Below, piece by piece: positions 3,774 through 64,000 of a DNA stretch of 64,000 nucleotides. Each line of letters opens with the position of its first letter. The stretch's first letter is position 1. The notes beneath the pieces were generated by a model. It did not search any database and had not been told where the DNA came from. It saw only the letters and a program-made list of their open reading frames with translations. Position numbers and translations under genes: made by a program. This stretch comes from an uncultured bacterium. Its GTDB lineage: Bacteria > RBG-13-66-14. The stretch is from positions 34,345 through 98,344 of the forward strand of contig CAYTCV010000002.1 in the NCBI GenBank assembly GCA_964436465.1, read 5' to 3'.

Positions 3774-3790
3774 CGCGCGGACGATTCGAC

Positions 3791-3814
3791 GGGGCTCCCG
3801 GAGCCCCTTTTTTT
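3791..3814 (+). terminator. Intrinsic terminator between convergent genes
   Basis: GGGGCTC-CCG-GAGCCCC hairpin followed by a T run. Confidence 0.75.
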
Positions 3815-23513: not shown

Positions 23514-26036
23514 CTACCGCGATACGACCAGCCTCTGCGTCGCCGTCGCCCCGCCGCCCGTCAGGCGGACGAGGTACACGCCGTTGGCGACGCCGTCGGT
23601 CGTCCAGGAGACCTCGTGGCGGCCCGCCGTGAATTCACCACTGGCGACGGTCCGGACCAGGCGGCCGGCCAGGTCGAAGACCTCGACCCGCACCGCACCG
23701 TCGGCGGCCAGGGTGAAGGGAATCGTGGTGCAGGCCCCGGCCGGGCAGGGGTAGCACGGTTCCAGGCTCGTGACCCGCGCCCCGGCTACCGTGCCGGTCA
23801 CCTCGACGGGACCGAACAGGCTCCGGGAGCCGTCGGCGCCCAGCGCCTCCAGCTTGTACGAGTAGACGGCACCGGGGGAGATGTCGAGGTCCAGGTAGCG
23901 TCCGCCGGTCATGGGAATCTCGTTCAGCCGGACGTAGCCGTCTTTTTCCTCTCGGAGTACGTTCACCCCGGTGATATCCGCCGGGTTGTCCGGTCTCCAC
24001 GAGAGCAGGATTCCCTCGTCCACGGCCTCGCCGGAGAAGGTCACGGAGCCGATGTCCGAGGTCTGCTCGGCCACGCTGATGTCGTCGAAGTAGAAGCCCT
24101 CTAGGGAAAGATTATTGTCGGAGGAGAAACGGAACCGCACCTCGACGTTGTTGCCCGTGTAGGCGGATAAATCGTAATTCTTCAAGGTCCAGTCCAGGTT
24201 CGCCCCGGTGAAGACGTCCTTTTCGACCCAGGCGCCGCTGTTCACCGCAACGTCGAGGTAAACGAAGTCGTAGTCTTCTTCCAGCTCGTATTTGAGCCAG
24301 AAGCTCAACTCGTCATGGTCGGCGTCCACGAAGATGGGGCAGGTCTTTATCCAGGAGTTCTGGTTTCCGCTGTAGGTGCCGGAGCCTGTGTCGCCGCATT
24401 TCCAGGAGTGGGTGGGCGAGTGCGCATCCTCCGTGGAGACGTGCCACTGGTCACCGGTGCCGCCGTGGGTCCAGAGTTCCCCATCCGACTCCACGTCGTC
24501 CTCGAAGCCCACCCCGACGACGATGCCGAAGGTGCCCTCGGTGGAGTAGTCGCCGTCGGCGGTGACGTCCAGGTTGGCGTAGGTGTTGTAGTGGTCGGGG
24601 CAGAAGCTGCTGATGCTGAATCTGAACGTGTCGGTGGCGGTCCCGCCGGCGGGGATGGAGCCGAAGTCGCCGGATGCGTCCGTGACGGTGAAGTATGTGT
24701 CGCCTATGGAGAGGGTGGCGGCGACGCCCGTCGCGGCGTCTATGCCTTCGTTCTTCAGGGTCACGGTCGCGTCAATCGTCTCGCCGGGGTCGAGCTTACC
24801 GTCGCCGTTACCGCCCACGGAATCGTCGTAGACGACGGAATCGAAGGCAATGGCCACCGGCTGCACGGGGTACGGGTCGGCGTACATCTCGAGAAATTCG
24901 TCCCACAGCGTGTCGGAGAAGTTTACCAGCGTGGTGTAGGTGGCCCAGTTTTGGTGGTCCGAGCCGTTCGTGGGGAAGTAGATGGACATCCCGCCGCCGG
25001 AGTCGGTGGCGCTGTGCATCCCGCCGGCCAGGATGTAGCCCTCGAGGTCGCCCGCGAACTGCGTGGCCTTGGTGCGCAGGTCGCCGGGCAGGGAGCCGTC
25101 GACGGCCAGGGCCTCCACGAACTGGTACAGGTCCCGGTCGTCCGGCGTGTTCCAGTAATCGGCGGAGTTCCGGGCGGTGACGATTCGGTCCTGGTAGGTG
25201 TAGCAGTTGTCGAATAGCGACTGGCAGAGGTCCGCCCAATCCTGGTCCATGTCGGCGGGCCAGCTCTTCACGTTCTGGGCGGCCTGGGTCACGCCGGAGC
25301 CGTAGAAGTCCAGGTAATCGTTGACTATTCGGGCGGCAATCTCCTCCGGGGTGACGCTCGAATCCTCCTCGAAGATGTTGAACGCCTGGTAATCCCACCC
25401 GTCTCCGGGCTCCGAATCCTCGCTGCAGATGCAGATGCCGGCGTCGTCGAGATACTGATAGCCGTTCTCGACCTGCCCGCCCAGGCACACGTCGAAGCCG
25501 ATGACGTCTATGAACTCCCCGACGTTCTCCAGGGCCTCCTCGATTTCCCAGATTTTCAGGTCGCTGCACATCCCGCGGTCTATCCAGTCCCGGGTCCCGT
25601 CCTCCAGAAAGATGCCGCTGCCGTGGTCCCAGGCGTCGAGGAGGAAGTTGTCGGCGGGATAGTTGGTGGTGACCCACTCCACGAAGTTTTCGAAAATCTG
25701 CGGGTCGTCCATGTCGGCCTCGTCGCCGGACCAGATGCCGTGACCCGTGATTTCCGGGGAGACGATGTCCTCGTAGTCACCCCCCGAGTAGCCGCCGGGG
25801 TCGGTCTGGATGTGGAAGAGCCGGGTGTGGTCGTCGGGGTCCCAGCCCACCATGACGATGACGTCCGCCCCGTCGGGGTAGGCGCCGTAGTTGCAGTCTT
25901 CCATCTCGTTGACGTCGTCCCAGCCGTAGGTTTTAAGGCTGTTCTGGTTGTTGAGCCAGACCATGACGGTCCAGGAACCGGCCATCGCCGCCGGGGGGAG
26001 CGCCAGGAGGATAAGGACCAACAGCAACTTCTTCAT
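23514..26036 (-). CDS. Secreted clostripain-family (C11) cysteine peptidase with beta-sandwich modules and Por-tail-like C-terminus
   Basis: Signal peptide from ATG 26036; WTVMVW, DAWDHGSG (His), GFDVCLGGQVE (Cys); C-terminal VEVFDLAGRLVR...NGVYLVRL. Confidence 0.8.
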   Translation of the reverse strand: MKKLLLVLILLALPPAAMAGSWTVMVWLNNQNSLKTYGWDDVNEMEDCNYGAYPDGADVIVMVGWDPDDHTRLFHIQTDPGGYSGGDYEDIVSPEITGHGIWSGDEADMDDPQIFENFVEWVTTNYPADNFLLDAWDHGSGIFLEDGTRDWIDRGMCSDLKIWEIEEALENVGEFIDVIGFDVCLGGQVENGYQYLDDAGICICSEDSEPGDGWDYQAFNIFEEDSSVTPEEIAARIVNDYLDFYGSGVTQAAQNVKSWPADMDQDWADLCQSLFDNCYTYQDRIVTARNSADYWNTPDDRDLYQFVEALAVDGSLPGDLRTKATQFAGDLEGYILAGGMHSATDSGGGMSIYFPTNGSDHQNWATYTTLVNFSDTLWDEFLEMYADPYPVQPVAIAFDSVVYDDSVGGNGDGKLDPGETIDATVTLKNEGIDAATGVAATLSIGDTYFTVTDASGDFGSIPAGGTATDTFRFSISSFCPDHYNTYANLDVTADGDYSTEGTFGIVVGVGFEDDVESDGELWTHGGTGDQWHVSTEDAHSPTHSWKCGDTGSGTYSGNQNSWIKTCPIFVDADHDELSFWLKYELEEDYDFVYLDVAVNSGAWVEKDVFTGANLDWTLKNYDLSAYTGNNVEVRFRFSSDNNLSLEGFYFDDISVAEQTSDIGSVTFSGEAVDEGILLSWRPDNPADITGVNVLREEKDGYVRLNEIPMTGGRYLDLDISPGAVYSYKLEALGADGSRSLFGPVEVTGTVAGARVTSLEPCYPCPAGACTTIPFTLAADGAVRVEVFDLAGRLVRTVASGEFTAGRHEVSWTTDGVANGVYLVRLTGGGATATQRLVVSR

Positions 26037-26107
26037 TGACGGGCTCCTTTGTCTGAAATAAAAAACGTCAAAAGTGTTTAAGCCGTAAAATGTACCTATC
26101 CACACAC

Positions 26108-39048: not shown

Positions 39049-39924
39049 CTAGGCTTGAAATCCGCGGTGGAGCCCCAACCCCCGCGCGAAACTTCTGATG
39101 TCCTCCATCTCGCCGGGCGTGAGTCGCCGGTTCAGGTCCCCGTACTCCCCCGCCCGGTGGCACGGGCGGTACTGGTCCATGATGTTGACGTAACTCTCCG
39201 GGGACAGCTCCGCGATGAACCGCAGGACGCCCCGGGAGTCGGCCAGGCAGGCCGGGAGGACCAGGTGGCGGATTAACAGCCCCTTCCGGGCGACTCCGCG
39301 TTCGTCGGTTTCCAGAATTCCCACCTGCCGGTGCATTTCCCGAAAAATCCCGACGCATTTCTCGAAGTAGTCCGGCGCTTCCGAAAGCTCACCGGCGGGG
39401 GCCTCGGGGCCGTATTTGAAGTCGGGCATGTAGATATCCACCAGGCCGTCCAGCAGCTCGACGACCTCCCGGCTCTCGTACCCCCCGCAGTTCCACACCA
39501 GCGGCACCCGCAGGCCCATTTCTCGGGCGAGCCTCACCGCCTCGGCCAGCGGGGGGGCGATGTGCGTCGGTGTCACGAGATTGACGTTCTCGCAGCCGTT
39601 TCGTTCCAGGGTGAGCATCAGCCGGGCCAGCTCCTCGGCTCCCGCGGGTTTCCCCGCCGCCCGCTGGCTGATGTCGGCGTTCTGGCAGAAGAGGCAATGG
39701 AGGTTACAGCCGCCGAAGAAGATTGTCCCCGAGCCGCCGCGCCCGACCAACTCCGGCTCCTCCCCGAAGTGGGGACCGGCGGAGGTGACCCGCGGCACCG
39801 GCCCCACACCGCAGGACCCCTTTTCCCCAGCCGTCCGGTCCACCCCGCACGCTCTGGGACACAGGGCGCAATCCCGGTAAATCTCTCCGAGGCGTCGCTG
39901 CGATGCGTCGCGGTGTGCGGTCAT
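39049..39924 (-). CDS. Radical SAM protein, PflX-like
   Basis: CALCPRAC.V.R..G..G.C, GCNLHCLFCQN (CxxxCxxC), NLVTPTH, DIYMPDFKY, RHLVLP, MDQYRP. Confidence 0.85.
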   Translation of the reverse strand: MTAHRDASQRRLGEIYRDCALCPRACGVDRTAGEKGSCGVGPVPRVTSAGPHFGEEPELVGRGGSGTIFFGGCNLHCLFCQNADISQRAAGKPAGAEELARLMLTLERNGCENVNLVTPTHIAPPLAEAVRLAREMGLRVPLVWNCGGYESREVVELLDGLVDIYMPDFKYGPEAPAGELSEAPDYFEKCVGIFREMHRQVGILETDERGVARKGLLIRHLVLPACLADSRGVLRFIAELSPESYVNIMDQYRPCHRAGEYGDLNRRLTPGEMEDIRSFARGLGLHRGFQA

Positions 39925-42275
39925 CGGTCCAGGGCGGCCAGGCCGCGGCGGGCGTACTCCAGCAGTACCGACCCGGGGTAGCCGCTCATCAAGCCCGTCA
40001 GGTCGGCGACGGCGCCCTCGGCGTTTTCGAGAAAATCGGCGTCGAGCCAGGCCGCCAGGGCCAGCGCTCGGTCGCCCGTGCCTTCGGTGCCGGTGGTGAT
40101 GACGTCCGCGAGTACGTCGCGGGCTGAGGTGTAATCCCCCTCCCCGGCCAGGAGGTCGGCCAGTTGGACGGCCGCCTCGTCGCCCAGCGGACCGCCGCCG
40201 GCCAGGGCGTCACGGAGGCGGCGTTCCTCTGCGGACGAATCGCCCCGGTAGCCGGCCAGGTAAGCTTCCACCAGGTCGGCGAGCGTCGCCTTCTCACCGG
40301 GGCTCTCGGCGAAGCCCGAGGCCAGGACCAGGCGCAGGAGGTCCGTAGACCGGGGGTCCTCGGCGTTCAGCGCGATGTACCGCCGGACCCGATTTACGAC
40401 CGGACCCGGGTCGAAGGACGGGTCTGCGTTCAGCGTCTCCGCCAGGTGCGCGAGCTGCAGGAGCGTCAGCTGGTAGTGCAGCTCCGGTTCGGCCGGCTCT
40501 TCGAGGTCGTCCGGCGTCCGCCCGGTGAGTCCCCAGGCCCGTTCCGGCTCGTCCAGCCGCAGGGCGGCCTCGATACGCGCGGCGAGCAGCTCCTCCCCGT
40601 CGGGGCCGTACCCGCGGTCCGCCGTAATTTCACCCAGCAGTGCCTCCGCCTCGGCGGGCCGACCGCCGCGCAGGAGGAAGAGGGCCGTCCGCCATTTCAG
40701 CTCACCGTCGGTGGGGTTCAGGGCGAGGATTTCACCGGGCTCGCAGTCTCGAGCGCTCAGGTTATAAACGCAGGCGAGGGACAGACCGGCGGATGCGAGC
40801 GCCCCCCGGGCGGCGTCGGTCAGGCCCTGCAGCCCGGCCAGCCGCAGGGCGGCTTCGAGCGCCATCTCCGGCAGTCCGGCCTGTCCCAGGGCGTTCACCA
40901 GCTCGAGGGGGAGGATTCCGCCGGCGCCGACGAGCCAGGGGGTGATGTCGGCGTTCTCGGTGAAGAAGGCGGTCATGGAGCGGATTTCGTCCTCGACGAC
41001 CCGACGGGCGCGCTCGTCCAGTACCGGCGTCGGCCTCTCTTCGCGCCAGGGGTGGGGCAGCGGTCCGGGACCGTCCTCCTCGGTGACCAGGGCCCAGGGC
41101 GAGAGGGCGAGGACCAGGCGTACTCGGCTGTACACCGGCTCCTCGCGGCCCTCGAGGGTGTCCAGGGCGATGAGCGCCGTCTCCTCCTTCTCCCCGAAAT
41201 TTCCGAAAAAACCGACGGCCCAGGAGCCGGGACCCTCCTGGGAAATGGCCTCGATGCAGGTTTCGGCGGCATCCCGGTAGCGCCCGAGGGCGAAGAGGAG
41301 CCGGACGACGTCCCGACTGTAATCCGCCGAATCGCCGGTGGGCGGATTTTCCAGCAGTCGGAGCGCCTCCTCGTTGAGGCCGTGGTCGGAAAAAATCCGC
41401 GCCACCGTCCGCACGTCGCCCGGCCGCAGGTTGGGCCGGTCCAGCTTCGCCCGCCAGCTTTCCAGCGCCTCGTCCACGCGTCCCAGGGAGAAGAGGCATT
41501 CCCCCCGCTCGACGTACACCCGGTCGTCCCGGGAACCGTCCTGGCCCTCCCACAGCCCGAGGGCCTCGCCGGCGCGGCCCAAAGCGCGCAGCCTTTCGCT
41601 CGCCTCGCAGCGGAACTCCACCCGGTCCGGGTCCAGCTCGACCCGGTGCAGCGCCTCGGTCACCGCCACCTCGGGTCCCCGGGCGGACTCGGTCAGGCGG
41701 AGCCAGGTCTTCCAGGTGCCCAGGTCGAATGCGTAGGGGTCCCCCCCGTAGGAGGCCAGGGCGAGCTCGGCGATTTCCGGTCGGCGGGCCAGGTCGTCGA
41801 GCACGTTCCGGCACCGGGCGGGCTGGGAACCGGCCACCCGGGCGGCGGCCTCGAAGGCGTTTTTTTCCAGGAGCCGCTTCGCCAGTACGCCCGCCACGTC
41901 GTTCCATGCGTTGCGGCGCTCCGCGGCCTCGAACCAAAGCTGGAGGTCGGAGGGGTTTTGGGCGAAATAATCCCCCAGGGCCAGGGCGGCGGAGTCCAAT
42001 CCGCCCGGAGCCCGCTCGGGCAGCTCGAAAAGCCTGCCCAGGGCCTGTCGTCCCTCGCCCAGCTCCCGGCGCCAGAGGAAAATCTGGGTCTCGAACCGGC
42101 CCAGCTTGTCGGGATGAACCTCGCCCGCGTCCGCGGCCCGGGTCAGAATTTCCGCCGCCCCCGCGTAATCCCCGGAGTCGGCGGCGGACTGGGCCTCGGA
42201 CCAGGCATCCGCTGCGGCCGGCTTGACCAGCAGGAGGATGACCCATATAATTTTGTGAAACCGAGGTGACAACAT
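39921..42275 (-). CDS. Large exported TPR-like protein
   Basis: Signal-like N-terminus; Ala/Leu/Glu/Arg-rich helical repeats; 4-bp overlap with the PflX-like gene. Confidence 0.65.
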   Translation of the reverse strand: MLSPRFHKIIWVILLLVKPAAADAWSEAQSAADSGDYAGAAEILTRAADAGEVHPDKLGRFETQIFLWRRELGEGRQALGRLFELPERAPGGLDSAALALGDYFAQNPSDLQLWFEAAERRNAWNDVAGVLAKRLLEKNAFEAAARVAGSQPARCRNVLDDLARRPEIAELALASYGGDPYAFDLGTWKTWLRLTESARGPEVAVTEALHRVELDPDRVEFRCEASERLRALGRAGEALGLWEGQDGSRDDRVYVERGECLFSLGRVDEALESWRAKLDRPNLRPGDVRTVARIFSDHGLNEEALRLLENPPTGDSADYSRDVVRLLFALGRYRDAAETCIEAISQEGPGSWAVGFFGNFGEKEETALIALDTLEGREEPVYSRVRLVLALSPWALVTEEDGPGPLPHPWREERPTPVLDERARRVVEDEIRSMTAFFTENADITPWLVGAGGILPLELVNALGQAGLPEMALEAALRLAGLQGLTDAARGALASAGLSLACVYNLSARDCEPGEILALNPTDGELKWRTALFLLRGGRPAEAEALLGEITADRGYGPDGEELLAARIEAALRLDEPERAWGLTGRTPDDLEEPAEPELHYQLTLLQLAHLAETLNADPSFDPGPVVNRVRRYIALNAEDPRSTDLLRLVLASGFAESPGEKATLADLVEAYLAGYRGDSSAEERRLRDALAGGGPLGDEAAVQLADLLAGEGDYTSARDVLADVITTGTEGTGDRALALAAWLDADFLENAEGAVADLTGLMSGYPGSVLLEYARRGLAALDR

Positions 42276-45325: not shown

Positions 45326-46774
45326 TCACGCCACGCTTCTATCGTGGTCCTTTTCGTCAGCCACCTCCCCCTCCTTCGCCGGACGGGATAGCTTTTCCAT
45401 CGCTATATCGTACGCCACCATGGGCAGCGCGAGGTAGAGATACAGATACTTGGTATACGTACCCAGCATGAAGCTGAATATCATGTAGGACGTGAAGGAG
45501 AGCGTCGTCGCCGTGGACAACAGACGAATACCCTGATGACCGGCCAACCGGGCCAGTTTTACCGCGCGAATACCAGACCGGAAGACGAGGTAAACCAGAA
45601 TCACGAAGGGGATGAATCCGATGAGGCCGAACTCGACGAAGATCTGGAGAATCGTCGAGTGCTCCCCGAGGCGCCCCCGTTTGATGATGTAACCTCCCAG
45701 AAGCTTTTCGGGGGTGGTTCGGTACTGCTGGTATCCCACGCCGAATATGGGATTTTCCAGGAAGAAGCGGATGGAGGTGTCCACCTGTCGTTTTCGAATC
45801 ATGACCGAGCGTTCCATGTCCCCGTTCCCTAAGAGGGAGTTCAGGGTTTCGATTCGCGCCCAGTAATCGAAGGGGATGAACGCGATGATGAGCAAGACGG
45901 TCAGCAGCAGCATTATCAACCGGTTTCTCATTTTTATCGTCGGGATGAAGAAGATAAGCAGGAGGACGAAAGCCAGGGTGATGAAGCCGGCGCGGGAGAA
46001 GGAGATGATAACGGCGATGAACGTGAGGAGGCCCATCACGATAAAAAAGGCACGCAATAATTTATTCTTTTGGTACCCGACGAGATATACAGCGAAGGGG
46101 AGAGCGACCAGTGTGTAGCAGGCGTATTCGTTGGGGTCGTAGAAGTTCGACGAGATTCTGCCGACATTCGGTATCGTGAGATACTGGTACAGCCCCAGCG
46201 CGCTGTCCAGTCCTCGGGCCAGAAGGATGACAACGAGCAGCCACCATAACCGCTTTTCCGTGTCCACGTATACGCGTGCCAGGACGAACAGAAGAAGGAA
46301 TTGAAGGTGCTGCTCGATGAACGCGGACTGGGGATTTCGGTTGAAGATGGTCGAGACGGCGCCGGCTAGAATCAAGATGAGGACCACGAGTCCCCGTTTG
46401 TCGAAGGCCCGTCTTAACCTCCGCCCGTACTCCGGTGTTCTGACAGCCGTTACGGCGAGGGTTACGGCGACGAGGATAACCCCGCCGATTTTGGCCAGGG
46501 TGAAGGTGCTGTTGCCGATGAAACCGTAGGGGAGGAGGTTGACGAGGAATACATAACCGAGGAAAGCGGCGAAGGGATATTTCAGGGAGAGGCCCAGCAG
46601 GATGGCGCCTACCACCGCATAGCCGACGTAGTAGTAGGGCAGGTGCAACACGAAGCAGACGACCAGGTACGCCGCCGCCAGCAGCACGCACGCCGTGAGA
46701 TTGCGGTGCCGATGGGTGTATTCCAGCAATCTCTCGCCGGGCCTTTGAAATATACCTGGTTGCGAAATGCTCAT
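45326..46774 (-). CDS. O-antigen ligase / Wzy polymerase family protein
   Basis: Many TM helices; DPNEYA, SFSRAGF, NPIFGVGY, HSTILQIFVEFGLIG. Confidence 0.85.
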   Translation of the reverse strand: MSISQPGIFQRPGERLLEYTHRHRNLTACVLLAAAYLVVCFVLHLPYYYVGYAVVGAILLGLSLKYPFAAFLGYVFLVNLLPYGFIGNSTFTLAKIGGVILVAVTLAVTAVRTPEYGRRLRRAFDKRGLVVLILILAGAVSTIFNRNPQSAFIEQHLQFLLLFVLARVYVDTEKRLWWLLVVILLARGLDSALGLYQYLTIPNVGRISSNFYDPNEYACYTLVALPFAVYLVGYQKNKLLRAFFIVMGLLTFIAVIISFSRAGFITLAFVLLLIFFIPTIKMRNRLIMLLLTVLLIIAFIPFDYWARIETLNSLLGNGDMERSVMIRKRQVDTSIRFFLENPIFGVGYQQYRTTPEKLLGGYIIKRGRLGEHSTILQIFVEFGLIGFIPFVILVYLVFRSGIRAVKLARLAGHQGIRLLSTATTLSFTSYMIFSFMLGTYTKYLYLYLALPMVAYDIAMEKLSRPAKEGEVADEKDHDRSVA

Positions 46775-56734: not shown

Positions 56735-56788
56735 GCCCCTCTCAACGGCCCCGCGGCACCCGGGGCTGGATTATCCTGGTGATGATAC

Positions 56789-56820
56789 AAAAAGGGCGTC
56801 CCGCCCGCAAGACCGCCCTT
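56789..56820 (-). terminator. Possible terminator between the dehydrogenase and neuA
   Basis: AAGGGCG/GTC..GAC/GCCCTT hairpin plus T run on the minus strand. Confidence 0.5.
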
Positions 56821-56853: not shown

Positions 56854-58176
56854 TCAGGCCAGCCACACGTTCCCGGCGTTCGGTATGCCCGCGGTGGCAT
56901 TCCGCGTGTCCACCACCAGGGCCGCGCGCCGGACCACCTCCCGGTAATCGTAGGCGGAATGGTTGGTCACGACGACCACGGCGTCATAGGCCGCGAGCTC
57001 GGAGTAGTTCTTCAGGGGTATGCTCTCCAGGCGCAGCTCGGTCTGGCGCGTGGCGGGCATCCGGGTGATAAACGGGTCGTGGTAGTCCACCTTCGCCCCG
57101 CGCGCGAGGAGGCCCTCCATGACCGGCACGGCCGGGCTTTCGCGCATATCGTCTATGTCGGGCTTGTAGGAGATGCCGAGAATTAAAATTTTCGCGCCCC
57201 GGAGCGGCTTGCCCGCCTGGTTGAGCGCCTCGGCGGTACGCTCCACGACGAAGCGGGGCATCCCCGTGTTAATCTCGCCGGCCAGCTCGATGAAGCGGGT
57301 GCTGAACTCGTACTCGTGGGCCTTCCAGGTGAGGTAGAAGGGGTCGATGGGGATGCAGTGCCCCCCGAGGCCCGGCCCCGGGCGGAAGGGCATGAAGCCG
57401 AAGGGCTTCGTCGAGGCGGCGTCGATGACCTCGTGCAGGTTGACCCCCATGCGCAGCGCCAGCATCTTCAGCTCGTTAACCAGGGCGATGTTCACGGCCC
57501 GGAAGGTGTTCTCGAAGATTTTCGTCATCTCGGACACCTCGAGGCCGGACACCGGGACCGTTTGTTCGAAGACGCGGTCGTAGAAATTTTTGGCCAGGTC
57601 CAGCCCCGCCGGAGTCAGCGCGCCGATGACCTTGGGAATCGTCCGGGTCCGGTAGTCCTTGTTGCCCGGGTCCTCCCGCTCCGGGGAAAAGGCGAGGAAG
57701 AAGTCCGTCCCGCCTTTGAGGCCCGACCCCTCCTCGAGGATGGGCCGGACGACCTCCCGGGTGGTGCCGGGGTAGGTGGTGGATTCGAGAATCACCACCT
57801 GTCCCTTCTTCAGCCGACGGGCCACGTCCCGGGCCGTGATTTCGACGAAGCTCAGGTCCGGCTGCCGGTGGCCGTCCAGCGGCGTGGGTACGCAGATGGC
57901 GATGACGTCCACTTCCGCCAGGCGGTCCAGGTCGCCGGTCGCCTCGAAGATGCCCGAGTCCACGTAAGGCTTGATGCGCCCGGCCGGTATCTGCTGGATG
58001 TAGCTCTCGCCTTGGCGCAGGTGTTCCACCTTCGACGGGTCGATGTCGAAGCCGAGGACGCGGATGCCGGCCTCGGCGAACTCCAGGGCGAGGGGCAGCC
58101 CGACGTAGCCCAGTCCGATGACGCCGAAAACGGCCGGACCCTCTTTCAGTTTTTTGGCCAGTTCGTTGTGGTTCAT
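56854..58176 (-). CDS. Nucleotide-sugar (UDP-GlcNAc) 6-dehydrogenase, WbpA/WecC/TviB family
   Basis: GLGYVGLP, ICVPTP, ESTTYPGTT, SPERED, ENTFRAVNIA, GGHCIPIDP; ATG 58176 after GAGG. Confidence 0.92.
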   Translation of the reverse strand: MNHNELAKKLKEGPAVFGVIGLGYVGLPLALEFAEAGIRVLGFDIDPSKVEHLRQGESYIQQIPAGRIKPYVDSGIFEATGDLDRLAEVDVIAICVPTPLDGHRQPDLSFVEITARDVARRLKKGQVVILESTTYPGTTREVVRPILEEGSGLKGGTDFFLAFSPEREDPGNKDYRTRTIPKVIGALTPAGLDLAKNFYDRVFEQTVPVSGLEVSEMTKIFENTFRAVNIALVNELKMLALRMGVNLHEVIDAASTKPFGFMPFRPGPGLGGHCIPIDPFYLTWKAHEYEFSTRFIELAGEINTGMPRFVVERTAEALNQAGKPLRGAKILILGISYKPDIDDMRESPAVPVMEGLLARGAKVDYHDPFITRMPATRQTELRLESIPLKNYSELAAYDAVVVVTNHSAYDYREVVRRAALVVDTRNATAGIPNAGNVWLA

Positions 58177-58180
58177 ATCC

Positions 58181-58648
58181 TCATCGGGTGTGGTAGAGAA
58201 GTGGTTTGAGCCGTTGTACAAGTTGCAGGGTAAACCGACCGCAGGCGCCGCCCAGGCCGTGGGTGCGTCGGTAAAGCCGGTGGACGAGCCAGGCCAGCCG
58301 GGCCCGCGCGGGCATCGCTCTCACGGCGCGGACGGAGCCGTTCCACCGGCGGGCCGTGACGCGGCCGATGAGTCTCCCGGCGCGCTCCACCGCCAGAACC
58401 GTATCCGCGTTTCCCCACCAGCCGTCGGCGTCCCGGTGGCAGAGACGGTGGACGACCTCGAGGCCGTCGGTATTTATATAGGCCGCGATTTCGCCGACCT
58501 GCGGAGGCGCCTCCCCGAAGGGCTCCAGTAGTATATCGGCCCCGTCGGGGAGCAATTCACCGTGGCATCGGCCACGGCTCTTCACCCAGCGGGGACCGCT
58601 CTCTCGCAGCGCTTCCGCTATGAGCCCGGCTTTCAGGTCTAGGTTAAT
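58181..58648 (-). CDS. S24/S26 (signal-peptidase-like) family protein of the RiPP cassette
   Basis: L.AEALR..G...VKSRGRCH..LL.DG..I......QVGEIAAY......VVHR pattern; frame is open to ATT 58648 after GAGGGTGG. Confidence 0.55.
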   Translation of the reverse strand: MNLDLKAGLIAEALRESGPRWVKSRGRCHGELLPDGADILLEPFGEAPPQVGEIAAYINTDGLEVVHRLCHRDADGWWGNADTVLAVERAGRLIGRVTARRWNGSVRAVRAMPARARLAWLVHRLYRRTHGLGGACGRFTLQLVQRLKPLLYHTR

Positions 58649-58712
58649 CCCACCCTCTTCCGTTCATGGATTCGAGGGGTTTTAATCCGCCTCAAGTAAC
58701 CGTCCGCTCGCC

Positions 58713-58892
58713 CTAGGAATTGTAGGGGATGATAGTGCAGTGGTCTGGAAGCATCTGGTATTCGCACGCCTGCACCGTACCCTTCTTACATACTACCAAG
58801 TCACCTTGAATATCATACACACAACTCACCGACGATTCCTGAAAGATTTTCTCACTCGTCAGGCTGGGCGATGTGTAGCTCTTCTTGTTCAT
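58713..58892 (-). CDS. Putative RiPP precursor peptide, 59 aa
   Basis: MNKKSYTSPSL leader (YxxPxL); Cys24/35/43/52; AAGGA upstream; directly follows the rSAM/SPASM gene. Confidence 0.75.
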   Translation of the reverse strand: MNKKSYTSPSLTSEKIFQESSVSCVYDIQGDLVVCKKGTVQACEYQMLPDHCTIIPYNS

Positions 58893-59976
58893 TTCCGTTT
58901 CCTTTTCGTGTGAGGTGTGCGGCCTGGGCTGATGTGTAATCGCGCGCCATCCGACAGATGCTGGGCGAGGACTTCCAAAGGCTGCCGGTTTCGATGAGGG
59001 CCAGGCCGGGGCAACGCATGCAATCATTGGCAAGCTCACAATCCCGGCAGTCAGGTATCGGGAGTGTGAGCATGCTCATCAGATAGAGGGTAAGCGGAGA
59101 ATGATGCCATATTTTCCTCAAGGTGCTCCGTCGGACGTTTCCCATCGAGGCTCGCATTTGCATGCAGGGAAACACCTCGCCGTCGGGCGTGACGGTCAGG
59201 CTCGAGAAACCGGCGGTGCAGGAAACGGCGTGAAAGACCCTCCGCCATTCCGTATTCTCCGGGGACTCGCCCTCCGGTGGGATATTTTGCGCGCGTTCGT
59301 AGTTATCAAGAATAAAACATTGTTCCTCGGCGTTGAGCGCCCTCTCCAGGGGTCCCGTGCCGCCGTCGTTGGCCAGGGTGATGTTCATGCTCAGGAGCGG
59401 GTGACCTCCCAACGACAGCATGTACCGGTCCAGCTCGTTGACCACGCTGTAATTCGATTTTAACAGACTGCCCTTGAGGTTGACGAATACCCCGGCGGCC
59501 CGGAGTCTTTTTACCGCCGCCACCGTGGCGTCGAAGCTGCCGGGAGTGCGGGTCACGGCTTCGTGCGTCGCGGCGTCGGGTCCGTGGAGGGAGATGTCGA
59601 CGTAGCGGACCCCGCACCGAACCAGGTGGTCCACGTCCTCCCCGGTCAGGGTCGTGGCGTTGGTGAAGAGGCGAACCATCACTTCCCGCCGGTGCAGCTC
59701 CTCCAGGATGTCCCAGAATCCCGGATTCAGTGTCGGTTCACCACCGGTGACGGTCACATAGAACGCCCCCAGGTCGGCGAGCTCGCGGATGGTCCGGAGC
59801 CAATCCTCGACCGGCATCTCCTCCCGGTGGGGGTCATCCGGCGTCAGGTAACAGTGCGTGCACCGGAGGTTGCAGCGGTAGGTCAGCTCGAAGGTGACGA
59901 GATAGGGGATATGACGTTGGAAGGCTTTCCAGCGGAACTTTTTGAAGGCTGTCGGTTCTGTGGCCCCGTCATTCAT
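58852..59976 (-). CDS. Radical SAM/SPASM peptide maturase (PqqE/SkfB-like)
   Basis: CNLRCTHC, TGGEP, SPASM CTAG..TVTPDGEVFPC...CRDC...CMRCPG...C. Confidence 0.9.
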   Translation of the reverse strand: MNDGATEPTAFKKFRWKAFQRHIPYLVTFELTYRCNLRCTHCYLTPDDPHREEMPVEDWLRTIRELADLGAFYVTVTGGEPTLNPGFWDILEELHRREVMVRLFTNATTLTGEDVDHLVRCGVRYVDISLHGPDAATHEAVTRTPGSFDATVAAVKRLRAAGVFVNLKGSLLKSNYSVVNELDRYMLSLGGHPLLSMNITLANDGGTGPLERALNAEEQCFILDNYERAQNIPPEGESPENTEWRRVFHAVSCTAGFSSLTVTPDGEVFPCMQMRASMGNVRRSTLRKIWHHSPLTLYLMSMLTLPIPDCRDCELANDCMRCPGLALIETGSLWKSSPSICRMARDYTSAQAAHLTRKGNGNEQEELHIAQPDE

Positions 59977-60014
59977 TCAGCTTAAAGCCGCCTGTTCGAA
60001 TCGCGCGGTGGAGG

Positions 60015-60299
60015 TCAGCGCTTGTATTCCACCAATCCCTTTTCCCCGAGCGCCTTGAAGAACGTCGTCAAATCGGTCCGGAGCTGATTCGGCTCCACGT
60101 CGTATTCCGCAAGGATGGAGCCTTCGATGTCGTCGAAGCTGCGCTTTCCGTCTATCAGTTTCCAGATGAGGCTCCCCACCTCGTTGAAGTTGTGGAGCGT
60201 ACCGTCGTCGGGGGTGATGGCGAAGATTTCTCCGTCCATCTCCTGAGAGGGGATGTGCCCCGTCTTCACGGGCACCGCGTCGGGGTCGTAGGTTTTCAT
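60015..60299 (-). CDS. PqqD-family RiPP recognition element (RRE)
   Basis: EMDGEIF...LHNFNEVGSLIWKLIDGKRS..DI...I.AEYDV......D...F...L..KGLV. Confidence 0.9.
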   Translation of the reverse strand: MKTYDPDAVPVKTGHIPSQEMDGEIFAITPDDGTLHNFNEVGSLIWKLIDGKRSFDDIEGSILAEYDVEPNQLRTDLTTFFKALGEKGLVEYKR

Positions 60300-61294
60300 C
60301 GGAGGATGTCGAGCCTTTCGCCGAAGTGGCCGAGGATGTAAGTCAGCGAGCGGAACGGCGGGTCCGCGAGGTAGAGCCCCAGCAGCCTGGAGTGCGTCCG
60401 GACCCCGCCCGACATCGGCCTCAGGAATTTCCTCCCGAATCTACCCGGTCGGAGCGGTTCTCCGGGCGGAACGAGCCTCCTCAACGTCGGATAGCATCTC
60501 AGGTAGGCCACCGCGAAACAGACCGTCCGCTCCAATCCCGCCTTGCGCGCATTCGCGTAGAGTTTACCCCAATCGAGGCCGGGACACAACATCCAGATAT
60601 CGTACACCGACAGGAGGTGGTAGTCGAAGAAGTGGTTCCCGCAGAGGTGGACCAGGCAGAAGAGCGCCGCGTCCTCCCTCGACGGCACCCATAGCTTGAC
60701 TCCGTGCAGGTCCAGGGGTATGGGCTCTTCGCCGAACCTGTACCGGGCGTTGTACCTCCCCGGCGCGGTGAGGGCGTAGTGAACTTCCAGGACGGTCCGG
60801 TCCCTGCCCCAGATGAGGTGGTTCCAACGCCGCCAGAGCCTGCGTCCCAGCCGCCCCCGGGTTTCCAGCCTCCAGCCCGTTTTCTCCGCCGCCTCGGCGA
60901 ACCGGGCCATCTTCCCGCGTTCTACGTAAATGTCTATATCCGACGCCGGCCGGGTGGCGGGCGGGTACAGCCGCGCGCGGAAATCCAACCCTTTTAACGC
61001 CAGAGGTCGCAGGTCCTCCGTCTCCGCCAGAAGGTCCAGGAGCGGGGCGGTTTGAACCAGTTCCCGGCAGGTCTCCCGACGCCGCTCTTCCTTCAGCGAG
61101 TCGAGAATCTCTTTTTGCAAGCCCTGTGCCAGGCCCCCGCCGCCCAGACTCCAATCCGCCAGCGGGGCCAGCCGCTCCCGCCTCAGCCGTTCAACTGCGT
61201 CGGGCGTCTCTATAATATGACGAGCCAGAGCATCCGGCTCTCGACTCGTCAGCGCGGTGAAGAGGGTTACTTTTTGCCCCGGAAACGTTTCCAA
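60296..61294 (-). CDS. Nucleotidyltransferase family protein (lasso/RiPP-associated type)
   Basis: LALKGLDF...YP....RPASDIDIYV, LEVHY; ATGA overlap with the RRE gene. Confidence 0.8.
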   Translation of the reverse strand: METFPGQKVTLFTALTSREPDALARHIIETPDAVERLRRERLAPLADWSLGGGGLAQGLQKEILDSLKEERRRETCRELVQTAPLLDLLAETEDLRPLALKGLDFRARLYPPATRPASDIDIYVERGKMARFAEAAEKTGWRLETRGRLGRRLWRRWNHLIWGRDRTVLEVHYALTAPGRYNARYRFGEEPIPLDLHGVKLWVPSREDAALFCLVHLCGNHFFDYHLLSVYDIWMLCPGLDWGKLYANARKAGLERTVCFAVAYLRCYPTLRRLVPPGEPLRPGRFGRKFLRPMSGGVRTHSRLLGLYLADPPFRSLTYILGHFGERLDILR

Positions 61295-63642
61295 ATCGAA
61301 CCTTTGGACCGCTCCGCTTCGTCGTCGCTGTGGTAGTAATAGTAGTGGTAGTACCTGTGCGACCTGTACGTTCGGGTGAGGTCCACTTTATTCAAAACAA
61401 AGCCCAGGATTTGAGCCCGCGCGTTTTTCAGGAGGTTGACCGCTTCCTTGACGGCCTCGGCCTCGCTCACCTCGGACTCGACAACGAGGATGGTTCCGTC
61501 GACCAGGGTTCCCAGGATTGCGGGGTCGGTCACCGCCAGGACGGGGGAGGTGTCCAGAATCACCTTGTCGTAATCCTGGCGGAATCGTTCGATGATTTCC
61601 TTTGTTCGGCGGCTGGACAGCAGCTCCGAGGGATTCGGCGGCGGGTGACCCGAGGGGAGGACGAAGAGGTTCTCGACCCGGGTGGGTCGGATGACTTCCT
61701 CGTCGGTTCTGTCCCCGAGGATGAGCTCGGTGAAACCGGGTGTGTTGGGAATGTTGAAGAAACGGTGCATCTTCGCCTTGCGCAGGTCTGTGTCCACCAG
61801 GAGGGTTTTATGGCCCTGCTGGGCGATGGACACACCAAGGTTCGCCGAGGTCGTGGTCTTCCCCTCACCCTTGCTGGGGCTCGTGATGGACAGAACGCGA
61901 ATCTGCTTGTCGATGCTGAAGTACTGGATATTCGTGCGGATAATGCGGTACGTTTCCGCGATGGGGGAACGCGGATTTTCCAGGACCGTCAGGTGACCCT
62001 CGCCGAGTTCCTCGAACTCCTCGGTCGCTTTCGGTATCGAGCCGATGTGCGTGAGCCCGGTCAGGTTCGCGACCTCATCGGCCGATTTCACCGTCGTGTC
62101 GTTCATCTCGACTATCATGGCCAGGCCGATTCCAATGACGAGGCCGATAATCAGGCCGAGGAGAAGGTCCGATACATGGTTGGGGCTCACCGGCTCCGCG
62201 GGTCGGATGGCCCGGTCGATGATGCGGACATCGCCCGTTTCCATGCTCTCGTTGATGCGGGCCTCCTCGTACCGCTCGAGGAGCAGTGAGTGAATCTTCG
62301 ACGCGACGTCGCTTTTTCGCTGCCGGATGGAGAGCTCCATCTCCTCCCGCGGCATGATGGAGAGCTCCGAGGTCATCTCGGATATGGTTTCCTGCGTTTC
62401 CTCGAGCTTGGATTTGGCGCCTTCGATGGAAATTCCGAGGGCGCCGGAGTCGACGATGTAGGAGAGCCGCCGCTCTATGTTGTTTTCGAGGTCGTACAGC
62501 TCGCCATCGATCTCGGATAGCCGGGGGTTGAGTGGACCGGAGGTTTGTTTCAACTGCTGTTTCTCGACCGTCAGCTCCCCGGCCGTCTGGACGAAATCCT
62601 TCAACAGCTGGTCCGTCTGGAATGTAGGCCATGAGCTGATGGCCATCAGCGTGTCGAGGTCGATTTCGCCCCGATTCAGGTAATTCTCGACGGTTCTCTG
62701 CTGTTCCTCCAGCTCGGCGAGGTCCCGTTCCAGGTTGTTCCTGTTCTCCTCGATTCTGCTCAAGCGGCTAATCAGCTCCCGGGCCTCGTCGTTGAAGGAC
62801 ACGATGCCCAGCTCTTCCTTGTATTCCCTGAGAAGGTCCTCGGTCAGCCGCAGCTTGACTTCGGCCACCTCGATTTGCTCCCCGATGAACTCCCGGGCCT
62901 TTCGGGCGCGCTCCTGCTTCCAGCGAAGATTCTCATCCACATAAACCTCGGCGACGGTGTTCGCCAGCCTGGCCACCATCTTCGGGTCCGTGTGGGAGAC
63001 GCTCACGGTGAATGCGTTTGAGTCTCTGGCCTGTTGCACGCTGATGGACTGGCGGATACGCTCGGCTTCCTGGATGGGGTTCGTCGACTGGATAATGATG
63101 ATTCGCTTGGGGTGGGGCTCGGGGTCGTGGAGGGTGAAGCCGAAAAGCCCGTCCTTCGATGCGAAGGGCTGGTCGTAGAGACCTTCGCCGATGACGTTGT
63201 GCGCGTCGTCCAGCACTGAGAAGCCGGTCTCGCTCTCGATGACTCTGTATCGGCCGACGGGGAAGCCGATTTCGACGAAGGGGTCCTCAAAGTAAACGCC
63301 TTCGGGCATCTGTGCCTGGGGGTGGAAGGCGAGGTTCAACCGCTCGACCACGTCCAGGCAGATGGAGCGACTCGAGATAATCTGAAGCTCGGTCTCCAGG
63401 CGATACGGCTGGAAGGACGTGTAAAAGCCCTGCAGGAGGTCGGTGTTCTGTCCCGAGGCCTCCAGGACCAGGGACGCCGTCGCCACAAAAATCGGGGGAG
63501 TTGTGTAGGATTGGTAGGCGGCAATCGTGAGCGATATCAGCGCGGCGAAGATGATTATCCACTTCCGCTTCCGCAGAACGAGGAGGTATTCCGAAACCTT
63601 GGGTGCGCCGCGCGCGCGGCCTGGATTGGTCGGTTGTTCCAC
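61267..63642 (-). CDS. wzc: Wzc polysaccharide co-polymerase / BY tyrosine kinase
   Basis: Two TM helices, coiled-coil periplasmic region, AETYR.IRTNI, Walker A GEGKTTT, DTDLR, DTSP, C-terminal Tyr cluster YRSHRYYHYYYY. Confidence 0.93.
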   Translation of the reverse strand: MEQPTNPGRARGAPKVSEYLLVLRKRKWIIIFAALISLTIAAYQSYTTPPIFVATASLVLEASGQNTDLLQGFYTSFQPYRLETELQIISSRSICLDVVERLNLAFHPQAQMPEGVYFEDPFVEIGFPVGRYRVIESETGFSVLDDAHNVIGEGLYDQPFASKDGLFGFTLHDPEPHPKRIIIIQSTNPIQEAERIRQSISVQQARDSNAFTVSVSHTDPKMVARLANTVAEVYVDENLRWKQERARKAREFIGEQIEVAEVKLRLTEDLLREYKEELGIVSFNDEARELISRLSRIEENRNNLERDLAELEEQQRTVENYLNRGEIDLDTLMAISSWPTFQTDQLLKDFVQTAGELTVEKQQLKQTSGPLNPRLSEIDGELYDLENNIERRLSYIVDSGALGISIEGAKSKLEETQETISEMTSELSIMPREEMELSIRQRKSDVASKIHSLLLERYEEARINESMETGDVRIIDRAIRPAEPVSPNHVSDLLLGLIIGLVIGIGLAMIVEMNDTTVKSADEVANLTGLTHIGSIPKATEEFEELGEGHLTVLENPRSPIAETYRIIRTNIQYFSIDKQIRVLSITSPSKGEGKTTTSANLGVSIAQQGHKTLLVDTDLRKAKMHRFFNIPNTPGFTELILGDRTDEEVIRPTRVENLFVLPSGHPPPNPSELLSSRRTKEIIERFRQDYDKVILDTSPVLAVTDPAILGTLVDGTILVVESEVSEAEAVKEAVNLLKNARAQILGFVLNKVDLTRTYRSHRYYHYYYYHSDDEAERSKGSIWKRFRGKK

Positions 63643-63643
63643 T

Positions 63644-64000
63644 CTACCAGCTCAGGTTGTAGAGGCGGTTCGCGTCGAATACGGCGCGAAGCGTAGGAGC
63701 GATGTTGTTGAGGAATTCGTTCCAGTCGCCGATGAACGTGCGGGGGACGTAAACTATATCCCCGGCGGCCAGCGGCACGTCGAGAGCCGCCCGGCCCTCC
63801 TCCAGGATGCCTCGCACGTCGACCAGGTAGAGGCGGGTCATGTCCGGCAATACGCGGATGATGGCGACCTCGCTCTCCACGGGATTGCCCCAGAAACCGC
63901 CGGCTTCGGCCAGGGCCTCGACCAGGCTCAACCTCACCCGGTAGTTGTAGCGTCCGGGGTCTTTCACCTCGCCGAGCACGTAAACCCTGCAACTCGAATA
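63644..64000 (-). CDS. wza: Wza/SLBB polysaccharide export protein (5'-truncated by window edge)
   Basis: VYVLGEVKDPGRY, L.EALAEAGG, L..GDIVYVP; frame is open to the window end. Confidence 0.85.
   Translation of the reverse strand, partial: YSSCRVYVLGEVKDPGRYNYRVRLSLVEALAEAGGFWGNPVESEVAIIRVLPDMTRLYLVDVRGILEEGRAALDVPLAAGDIVYVPRTFIGDWNEFLNNIAPTLRAVFDANRLYNLSW

Follow-up and report, generated by a model that had tools for sequence, protein, structure and literature searches.

A candidate cassette for a ribosomally synthesised and post-translationally modified peptide (RiPP) lies inside the polysaccharide-export operon of an uncultured bacterium, and parts of it recall several described systems. 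The window analysed here comprises 64,000 nucleotides (nt) of contig CAYTCV010000002.1 (assembly GCA_964436465.1). It has a G+C content of about 65%, and the closest named relatives of its proteins come from metagenome-assembled genomes (MAGs) of Candidatus Coatesbacteria. The cassette occupies the space between wzc and a nucleotide-sugar dehydrogenase gene and consists of genes for a nucleotidyltransferase (NTase), a PqqD-family protein, a radical S-adenosylmethionine (SAM)/SPASM enzyme, a precursor peptide and a small peptidase-like protein.

One related system is the SynChlorMet (SCM) cassette of Haft, defined by the NCBIfam entries TIGR04248-04251, which comprises ScmC, the PqqD-type protein ScmD and the two radical SAM/SPASM proteins ScmE and ScmF. 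As in SCM, a PqqD-family protein is followed in the window by an adjacent PqqE-like radical SAM/SPASM enzyme. However, the scores stay far below the curated cut-offs: ScmE, the top NCBIfam match of the radical SAM enzyme, reaches 121 bits (E=4.1e-35) against a cut-off of 400, and ScmD reaches 41 bits against 100. In addition, neither ScmC nor a second radical SAM gene (ScmF) is present between wzc and the dehydrogenase gene, either in the window or in syntenic loci, whereas the window cassette adds a PF14907 NTase and a predicted Cys-His S26-like peptidase and is embedded in a polysaccharide operon.

The second relevant system is the tailoring of the lasso peptides paeninodin and pseudomycoidin by an HprK-like kinase (PsmK/PadeK) and PsmN. 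In pseudomycoidin, PsmK phosphorylates the C-terminal Ser, and PsmN, an uncharacterised NTase-family protein, is required for the addition of one or two hexoses to the phosphate (PMC6993621). PsmN acted solely on already phosphorylated peptide, and its DxD mutant D134A/D136A was inactive (PMC6993621). An initial annotation of the window had invoked this precedent and, as to the role of an NTase in adding sugar, did so correctly. The window resembles these systems in its precursor with a terminal Ser, its PF14907 NTase with a DxD motif, its PqqD-type RiPP recognition element (RRE, the B1 protein of lasso systems) and a YxxPxL-like leader motif, and among related cassettes of the wider family, 27 of the 31 loci with the NTase also encode an HprK-like protein. 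In contrast, the main modifying enzyme in the window is a radical SAM/SPASM protein, and neither such a kinase nor an ABC exporter is encoded at the locus. A lasso peptide was considered and rejected, since neither an Asn-synthetase-like cyclase (C) nor a B2 transglutaminase-type protease was found with Pfam and NCBIfam in any open reading frame (ORF) of 56.8-64 kb or in the gene tables of the syntenic loci. The analogy is thus apt for the way in which kinase, NTase and Ser tailoring work, but it does not extend to the class of the peptide.

The sactipeptide and ranthipeptide maturases SkfB, AlbA and CteB are likewise radical SAM/SPASM enzymes with the full set of auxiliary-cluster Cys residues, acting on a Cys-containing core. 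Their RRE is an N-terminal domain, whereas that of the window is a separate PqqD protein, and both classes lack the leader type, C-terminal Ser, NTase and S26-like peptidase seen here. The Sec11/SipW-type (S26B) signal peptidases and the LexA-like S24 proteins share with the window peptidase the predicted fold and the order of the sequence boxes (GxSMxP-like, HR, GD..D, GRV). The window protein differs in its Cys at the nucleophile position, the lack of a predicted membrane anchor and its likely substrate, a cytoplasmic RiPP leader. Finally, TfpO and TfpM are Wzy_C-domain O-oligosaccharyltransferases that transfer O-antigen or capsule units to a Ser/Thr at the C-terminus of pilins (PMC9829042). 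A Ser/Thr acceptor at the C-terminus and a Wzy_C domain, present in a 482-aa (amino acid) protein of the window, recall this system, but its acceptor is an exported pilin, and the likeness is conceptual only.

A probable RiPP cassette within a wza-wzc operon

The reading towards which we lean is that a genuine RiPP cassette has become fixed within the wza-wzc...UDP-sugar-dehydrogenase operon of the Coatesbacteria lineage, where it would be co-transcribed and so co-expressed with the export genes and its peptide tailored at the terminal Ser, with no covalent peptide-glycan conjugate favoured. All genes concerned are on the minus strand, running from 64000 down to 56854. The first is the C-terminal part of wza (63644-64000; called ORF 63644-63979), for an outer-membrane polysaccharide export protein. 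It extends past the window end, encodes SLBB/SLBB_2 domains with weak matches to XrtA-type export proteins, and corresponds in position to full-length Poly_export+SLBB genes of syntenic loci. It is followed by wzc (61267-63642), the 791-aa product of which has the Pfam domains Wzz, GNVR and AAA_31, the last with the P-loop of a bacterial tyrosine kinase (BY-kinase), and the C-terminal Tyr cluster YYHYYYYH, and scores 202 bits against TIGR01007 (cut-off 108). A Poly_export/SLBB protein together with a Wzz-GNVR-BY-kinase bearing a Tyr cluster identifies a Wza/Wzc export operon of the group 1-like type.

The cassette follows without a larger break. The NTase gene (60296-61294, 332 aa) starts with a TTG 28 bp inside wzc, and its stop overlaps the start of the PqqD gene (60015-60299, 94 aa) by 4 bp (ATGA). 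A gap of 38 bp leads to the radical SAM/SPASM maturase gene (58852-59976, 374 aa), the 3' end of which overlaps the start of the precursor gene (58713-58892, 59 aa) by 41 bp; an AAGGA motif lies 8-12 nt 5' of the precursor ATG. The peptidase gene (58181-58663) stops 4 bp before the ATG of the dehydrogenase gene (56854-58176). The 440-aa dehydrogenase resembles UDP-ManNAc and UDP-GlcNAc dehydrogenases, contains all three UDPG_MGDP_dh domains and scores 423 bits against TIGR03026 (cut-off 190). The 28-bp overlap and the 4-bp gap, both pointed out in the initial annotation, are borne out by the coordinates, and the overlap is conserved in related loci: a 39-nt stretch spanning it is identical in five loci with diverged proteins, and the most divergent locus, L006, keeps the 28 bp with a GTG start.

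The Tyr cluster at the C-terminus of Wzc (RYYHYYYYHSDDEAERSKGSIWKRFRGKK, 61267-61330, minus) ends within the NTase reading frame, so that the last 9 wzc codons are doubly constrained. Judged by its sequence, the conserved overlap is not accidental and matches what dual coding and translational coupling would predict; the NTase gene and wzc are probably coupled in translation.

The same annotation had seen neither an evident internal terminator nor a peptide transporter, and both statements hold. The terminator scan finds no convincing terminator inside the wza-to-dehydrogenase unit. Two weak hairpins lie within the wzc coding sequence, the total hairpin count is 16 against 10.6 +/- 3.3 expected, and promoter-like sequences occur at chance level. 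The spacer between the precursor and peptidase genes shows no unusual structure (z = -0.27), and Rfam gives no match in 56-64 kb. No ABC, MFS or MatE exporter is encoded in 16-64 kb of the window. The gene layout leads us to infer at least this link to the polysaccharide: the cassette would always be expressed together with the export machinery.

The maturation enzymes

The NTase matches PF14907 with E=2.9e-30 and 106 bits (cut-off 31). Conserved residues of the 38 cassette NTases compared are K101, G102, R115, D119, D121, H172, E207, H216 and D232, and the metal site of the NTase fold, KG at 101-102 and D119-x-D121, is invariant among them. A profile seeded with one acidobacterial NTase retrieves those of Coatesbacteria and vice versa; the distant NTases were found by local profile searches of the fetched loci, while the word-indexed protein search reached close relatives only. 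A search of PDB sequences with the NTase profile gave chance-level matches only, and the AlphaFold model, built from 14 close relatives, is poor, with a predicted local distance difference test score (pLDDT) of 55. The domain occurs in fusions elsewhere. In L019 (11139-13019) and L075 (4845-6578) it is joined to a C-terminal SAM-dependent methyltransferase, for which the top NCBIfam match in L019 is a protein-lysine N-methyltransferase, and in L034 (Lentisphaerae, 2757-4295) an N-terminal S24-like peptidase domain is fused to the NTase. An apparent fusion of radical SAM enzyme and NTase in L078 was rejected as an artefact of ORF calling; Pfam detects PF14907 alone in it.

The PqqD-family protein, the putative leader-binding RRE, matches PF05402 with E=3.4e-15. 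In NCBIfam it comes closest to the PqqD families of the lasso, GeoRSP and ScmD types, under the cut-off in each case, with lasso_PqqD_Bac scoring best (44 bits, cut-off 80). The radical SAM enzyme contains the Pfam domains Radical_SAM and SPASM. In 41 sequences, C35, C39 and C42 of the CX3CX2C motif and C253, C271, C310, C313, C319 and C322 are invariant and C341 is nearly so, which gives the complete CX3CX2C motif and seven-Cys SPASM set. MftC and PqqE are among its best family matches, and its closest solved relative is SkfB (1.8e-21).

The small peptidase

The last gene of the cassette (58181-58663, minus; listed as ORF 58181-58585 with a GTG start at 58585 and at least 134 aa) codes for a small protein with no match in Pfam or NCBIfam, and its profile finds only chance-level matches among PDB sequences. 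By word-indexed search, the family is restricted to Coatesbacteria, with lengths of 123-162 aa; the profile retrieves 57 proteins from 1.84 billion (1.84e9) representatives. The assignment comes from profile and structure comparisons. An AlphaFold (AF2) model from 17 sequences reaches a pLDDT of 81, and its top Foldseek matches are SEC11 of the human signal peptidase complex, the C-terminal domain of lambda cI, LexA, UmuD and E. coli SPase I. The top 15 are all S24/S26 proteins, with probabilities of 0.8-1.0 and modest E-values from 9e-3. Alignment by hhalign with 30 cassette S26B peptidases gives a probability of 86% and E=4.6e-6, with Cys placed on Ser and His on His, and Pfam Peptidase_S24 is matched by 31 of 37 aligned proteins (34 profile matches and three family members). 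These comparisons agree on the LexA/signal-peptidase fold.

The invariant Cys of the motif R-G-x-C-H/M-G-E aligns with the nucleophile Ser of G-x-S-M-x-P, and the invariant H-R, with the general base, aligns with the His-Arg of S26B. The Ser nucleophile of GxSMxP is itself missing: all Coatesbacteria members covering the column have Cys. The same residue stands there in four unrelated members outside Coatesbacteria (P0156, P0172, P0176 and P0205, with GQCMEP, GFCMEP and GTCMAP), and a Ser/Cys exchange of this kind would be typical of a true nucleophile position. Sequence and model thus suggest an S24/S26-fold peptidase in which a Cys-His pair stands for Ser-His, and its activity is predicted. 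The model contains no transmembrane anchor. Three relatives (P0157, P0159 and P0163) bear C-terminal GNAT domains.

The start of the gene deserves a comment. A conserved N-terminal helix (LKAGLIAEALRESGPRW) lies 5' of the listed GTG. This part of the window (58586-58663, minus) is in frame and conserved at the protein level, reading TEEGGINLDLKAGLIAEALRESGPRW here and TNEGWIKQNLKAGLIAEALRAGGPRW in L004, and ATG, GTG and TTG are all absent from it as far back as the in-frame stop; L004 likewise lacks the three codons, with the stop at the same position. In L006, the peptidase gene has a normal ATG further upstream. The annotated GTG is probably too far downstream, and, because the conserved stretch offers none of the three usual codons, the peptidase likely uses a non-canonical start.

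A widespread cassette family

Homologues of the radical SAM enzyme with 30-36% identity sit in ScmC-PqqD-radical SAM cassettes away from polysaccharide genes. Eighty such distant loci (L014-L093), drawn from a species-representative genome collection among the matches listed, were compared by clustering their neighbours and by local profile searches. They belong mostly to Acidobacteriota, with Chloroflexota, Dormibacterota, Armatimonadota, Omnitrophota and others. Within about 7 kb of the cassette, to which all neighbour counts refer, an ScmC-like P-loop protein is encoded in 65 of the 80 loci, an S24/S26-type (S26B-type) peptidase in 43 and a PF14907 NTase in 31. Wzc occurs in five loci and Wza in four, which leaves 75 cassettes with neither. 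Those adjoining wza or wzc belong to four Terriglobia loci and one Omnitrophota locus, some of which include a Wzy_C protein; five in 80 is not clearly above the rough chance expectation for polysaccharide-rich genomes, which is an estimate and not a computed value.

The ScmC relatives match the NCBIfam HprK-related kinases A/B and, weakly, the P-loop of PEPCK, and the peptidases of the distant cassettes exceed the curated cut-off of TIGR02228 (archaeal/Sec11-type signal peptidase I). By sequence, the family is a large, widespread, uncharacterised RiPP group related to SynChlorMet, and the window cassette is a derived member of it. Literature searches found nothing on this cassette family, nor any link between a RiPP and wzc.

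A large protein with a signal peptide is encoded within 7 kb in 45 of the 80 distant loci. These proteins belong to a family with no Pfam domain, to a CBM96 plus PQQ_2 beta-propeller family or to gingipain-like Peptidase_C25 proteins, and extracytoplasmic proteins may be targets or partners of the cassette family. Just 7 of the 80 loci have an ABC-2 transporter pair.

The precursor peptide

The 59-aa precursor of the window (MNKKSYTSPSLTSEKIFQESSVS followed by CVYDIQGDLVVCKKGTVQACEYQMLPDHCTIIPYNS, ending in PYNS) was recognised by reading the sequence and by its orthologues; Pfam and NCBIfam return nothing for it. Orthologues in eight related loci keep the leader, the four Cys residues and the terminal Ser, a residue to which the initial annotation had already drawn attention. 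The leader of this embedded type follows the pattern M-x-KK-S/T-Y-x-x-P-x-L/V-x-S-E/D-K/R-I/V-F-x-E, with SYTSPSL as the YxxPxL-like motif in the window, and the C-termini are YNS, YDS, FDS, GES, GSS, RDS and KDS. Conservation in the precursor is concentrated at the extreme C-terminus.

With a hidden Markov model seeded on the embedded precursors, 56 of the 80 distant loci yield a small ORF. Family precursors have a KKxYxKPx leader, and a terminal Ser ends 68 of 70 unique sequences. In the distant family, the leader Tyr stands exactly 18 residues ahead of the first Cys in 54 of 55 sequences; Ala precedes this Cys at position -3 in 54 of 55 and Ala or Ser at -1 in 48 of 55, and the core is 18 aa long in 41 of 55. 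The classical signal-peptidase-I site is Ala-x-Ala. An Ala-x-Ala/Ser site ahead of the first Cys thus fits an S26B-type peptidase as the leader peptidase, which would remove the leader in the distant family. In the embedded Coatesbacteria type the site reads (A/S)-S-x-(K/R), and the core comprises 33-43 aa with four Cys. The literature searched holds no description of a precursor that, as predicted here, combines such a leader, an Ala-x-Ala-type site, a short Cys...Cys core and a near-invariant terminal Ser.

Conservation of the arrangement in Coatesbacteria

The initial annotation regarded the cassette as hard-wired into the polysaccharide operon, and comparison of related loci, based on metagenome contigs, supports this. 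The order wza-wzc-NTase-PqqD-radical SAM-precursor-peptidase-dehydrogenase-neuA-neuB is kept in L001/2, L003, L004/5, L006/7, L013, L095, L096, L099 and L100; at least eight distinct related loci share it, with radical SAM identities of 53-100% and, in one case, of 40%. Divergently oriented ETF genes lie 5' of wza in the syntenic loci, and all sufficiently long contigs carry ETF and then the wza-through-neuB order. The close relatives of the radical SAM enzyme all come from metagenomes or Coatesbacteria MAGs, and the polysaccharide-embedded form of the cassette was found in this lineage only.

When metagenomes were scanned with the dehydrogenase as anchor, every locus with at least 82% dehydrogenase identity proved to carry the cassette. 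The nearest loci outside the clade, L097 and L171 (74% identity), have MurD upstream and no wza, wzc or cassette. Among the loci compared here, no relative has wzc directly abutting the dehydrogenase gene without the cassette. As the embedded loci are all syntenic, the embedding is, on this comparison, old and stable but a single evolutionary event. The lineage is set apart by a cassette interlocked with wzc, by the loss of ScmC, by changes to the peptidase and to the cleavage site, and by the larger four-Cys core.

One Coatesbacteria genome (CP070633.1, L011 9101-9655) carries a separate cassette with a weak ScmC, two tandem precursor genes, PqqD and a radical SAM enzyme. Its precursors have four Cys each and end in RS and FS, and the cassette adjoins a MatE gene and is unlinked to polysaccharide genes.

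The downstream element and the rest of the locus

A GC-rich hairpin with a T-run (AAGGGCGGTCTTGCGGGCGGGACGCCCTTTTTGTA, 56786-56820, minus) starts 33 nt past the dehydrogenase stop and about 50 nt ahead of neuA. It was recognised by the terminator scan, by folding and by its conservation across loci. It lies within a near-invariant block of about 45 nt, surrounded by otherwise diverged spacers, that occurs once in each of seven related loci (for example at L001 13219, L003 13150, L013 11848 and L096 11355), with zero copies expected by chance. L006 lacks this block, and there the dehydrogenase gene and neuA are 3 bp apart. The element looks like a terminator marking the 3' end of the unit. Since it is invariant in sequence and does not covary, it may also hold the neuA promoter (TTGCGG-17 nt-TATCAT) or serve as a binding site for a protein or sigma factor.

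The downstream genes encode NeuA, NeuB, a methyltransferase, a NeuC-like epimerase, a CBS-DegT aminotransferase, Wzx, a 622-aa Epimerase_2-like protein, a GT4 protein, the 482-aa Wzy_C-domain protein (45326-46774), a GT1 protein and a TPR protein. The locus is of the type for a surface polysaccharide containing nonulosonic acid. At its far end lies a second small radical SAM gene (39049-39924, minus; 291 aa, without SPASM), which overlaps the stop of the gene for a 784-aa TPR protein (39921-42275, minus). Elsewhere in the window, two proteins have a Por_Secre_tail domain, the C-terminal sorting signal of type IX secretion (16335-18218 and 23514-26105, minus), and one of them is a clostripain-family C11 peptidase; given these proteins, the organism probably has a type IX secretion system.

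Relation of the peptide to the polysaccharide

The catalytic motifs of the radical SAM/SPASM enzyme, the NTase and the peptidase are intact, and a maturation pathway can be proposed. PqqD would bind the leader motif KK-S-Y-x-x-P-x-L, after which the radical SAM/SPASM enzyme would cross-link the core via its Cys residues, most likely by thioethers, to judge by SkfB as the nearest solved relative. The PF14907 NTase, by analogy with PsmN, would then modify the C-terminal Ser59 with a nucleotidyl group, a phospho-sugar or a sugar, here without the usual HprK-like kinase. In the last step, the S26-like Cys-His peptidase would cleave off the leader immediately before the first Cys. The relation of the peptide to the polymer is most likely regulatory or ecological and not covalent, and the product that we favour is a peptide, either free or associated with the matrix, that would be synthesised whenever polymer export takes place.

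Several points weigh against this fixed and co-expressed cassette with a tailored peptide. Co-expression is read from the gene layout of an uncultured organism, and both thioether formation and Ser modification are analogies, for all members of the family. With ScmC missing here and PsmN acting only on phosphopeptide, the substrate of the NTase may differ in this locus. The lack of an encoded exporter in 16-64 kb is awkward for a secreted peptide, and the peptidase gene offers no canonical start codon for its conserved N-terminal part. Finally, the embedded loci represent one event, and positional conservation could partly be inertia.

Another reading is that the cassette is a hitch-hiking insertion in a well-expressed operon, functionally independent of the polysaccharide and kept for a purpose of its own, for example as an antimicrobial or a signal. 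The distant cassettes, which mostly lie elsewhere in their genomes, would agree with this, as would the separate ScmC-type cassette beside MatE in L011, at an unrelated locus of a Coatesbacteria genome, and the lack of wza, wzc and cassette upstream of the nearest outside dehydrogenase relatives (L097 and L171). However, even where radical SAM identity has fallen to 40%, the cassette keeps its place and its dual-coding overlap with wzc, and the joint changes (loss of ScmC, Cys peptidase, four-Cys core and cleavage site) suggest specialisation. We regard such an insertion as unlikely.

The initial annotation had proposed instead a peptide-glycan conjugate. Spelled out here in more detail, this would mean that the terminal Ser receives a sugar or sugar-phosphate from the nucleotide sugars of the locus, either through the NTase using UDP-ManNAcA or a CMP-nonulosonate or through the Wzy_C protein acting like TfpO/TfpM, and the peptide would prime or cap the polymer or be displayed with it. 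The setting is suggestive. Flanked by wzc and the dehydrogenase gene, the cassette has conserved overlaps, and neuA, neuB and neuC-like genes, Wzx, glycosyltransferases and the 482-aa Wzy_C protein lie downstream. PsmN-dependent addition of hexose at a C-terminal phospho-Ser (PMC6993621) and glycosylation of a C-terminal Ser/Thr by TfpO/TfpM (PMC9829042) are both documented. No dedicated peptide exporter is encoded in 16-64 kb, and cassettes also lie beside wza/wzc in the four Terriglobia loci and the one Omnitrophota locus. Nevertheless, of the four features on which the proposal was built (terminal Ser, NTase, missing exporter and operon position), the first two are family-wide: the terminal Ser in 68 of 70 precursors and the NTase in 31 of 80 loci, 27 of them with ScmC. 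Being ancestral to a family that is usually not beside polysaccharide genes, they carry no weight for conjugation. The proposal had itself been staked on homologous cassettes commonly lying in wza/wzc loci, and 75 of the 80 distant ones do not; the adjacency in the remaining five, roughly estimated, is not clearly in excess of chance. Moreover, TfpO-type enzymes work on exported, folded periplasmic pilins, whereas the precursor has no export signal, and the Wzy_C protein can equally be read as a Wzy polymerase. A conjugate is, on this evidence, improbable, and its most specific form, a RiPP-polysaccharide hybrid in which a sugar, sugar-phosphate or nonulosonate produced by this locus would be attached at the terminal Ser by the kinase-less NTase or a TfpO-like Wzy_C protein, is more doubtful still.

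The peptide might also stay in the cytoplasm, where it would modulate Wzc or the dehydrogenase or be converted to a small molecule, as in the pathways for pyrroloquinoline quinone (PQQ) and mycofactocin. BY-kinases phosphorylate UDP-sugar dehydrogenases, which explains why wzc and the dehydrogenase gene share an operon and would suit a regulator acting on either. The lack of an exporter in 16-64 kb, the peptidase model without an anchor, the ranking of MftC and PqqE among the best radical SAM family matches and the focus of conservation on the extreme C-terminus of the precursor point the same way. On the other hand, a core of 33-43 aa with four conserved Cys suggests a structured peptide and not the precursor of a small molecule, and the large signal-peptide proteins beside 45 of the 80 distant cassettes hint at an extracytoplasmic role of the family. 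We consider an intracellular regulator or cofactor a doubtful alternative.

That the cassette is a decaying remnant making no product is very improbable, for although ScmC is absent, the conserved N-terminal stretch of the peptidase lacks ATG, GTG and TTG and its nucleophile Ser has become Cys, all five ORFs are intact in at least eight diverged loci, the catalytic residues of the radical SAM enzyme, NTase and peptidase are conserved, the Ser/Cys exchange recurs elsewhere in the peptidase family, and the precursor is built as RiPP precursors usually are, its leader conserved and its core variable apart from the fixed Cys and Ser.

Significance

The comparison defines an uncharacterised, widespread RiPP family that extends over Acidobacteriota, Chloroflexota, Dormibacterota, Omnitrophota, Coatesbacteria and others. 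The family repeats, on a radical SAM scaffold, the kinase/NTase tailoring pair that was, to our knowledge, previously known only from the lasso peptides of Firmicutes, and its precursors provide PF14907 enzymes with a candidate substrate that can be tested.

No clearer case of a RiPP cassette translationally interlocked with wzc was found than the one in Coatesbacteria. Even if the peptide has no effect on the polymer, the locus is a compact five-gene system suited to heterologous study. If the peptide affects or joins the polymer, this would be a new mode of capsule or exopolysaccharide modification, and if a sugar is attached at the terminal Ser, the product would be an undescribed RiPP-polysaccharide hybrid, a polymer primed, capped or decorated by a radical-SAM-cross-linked peptide.

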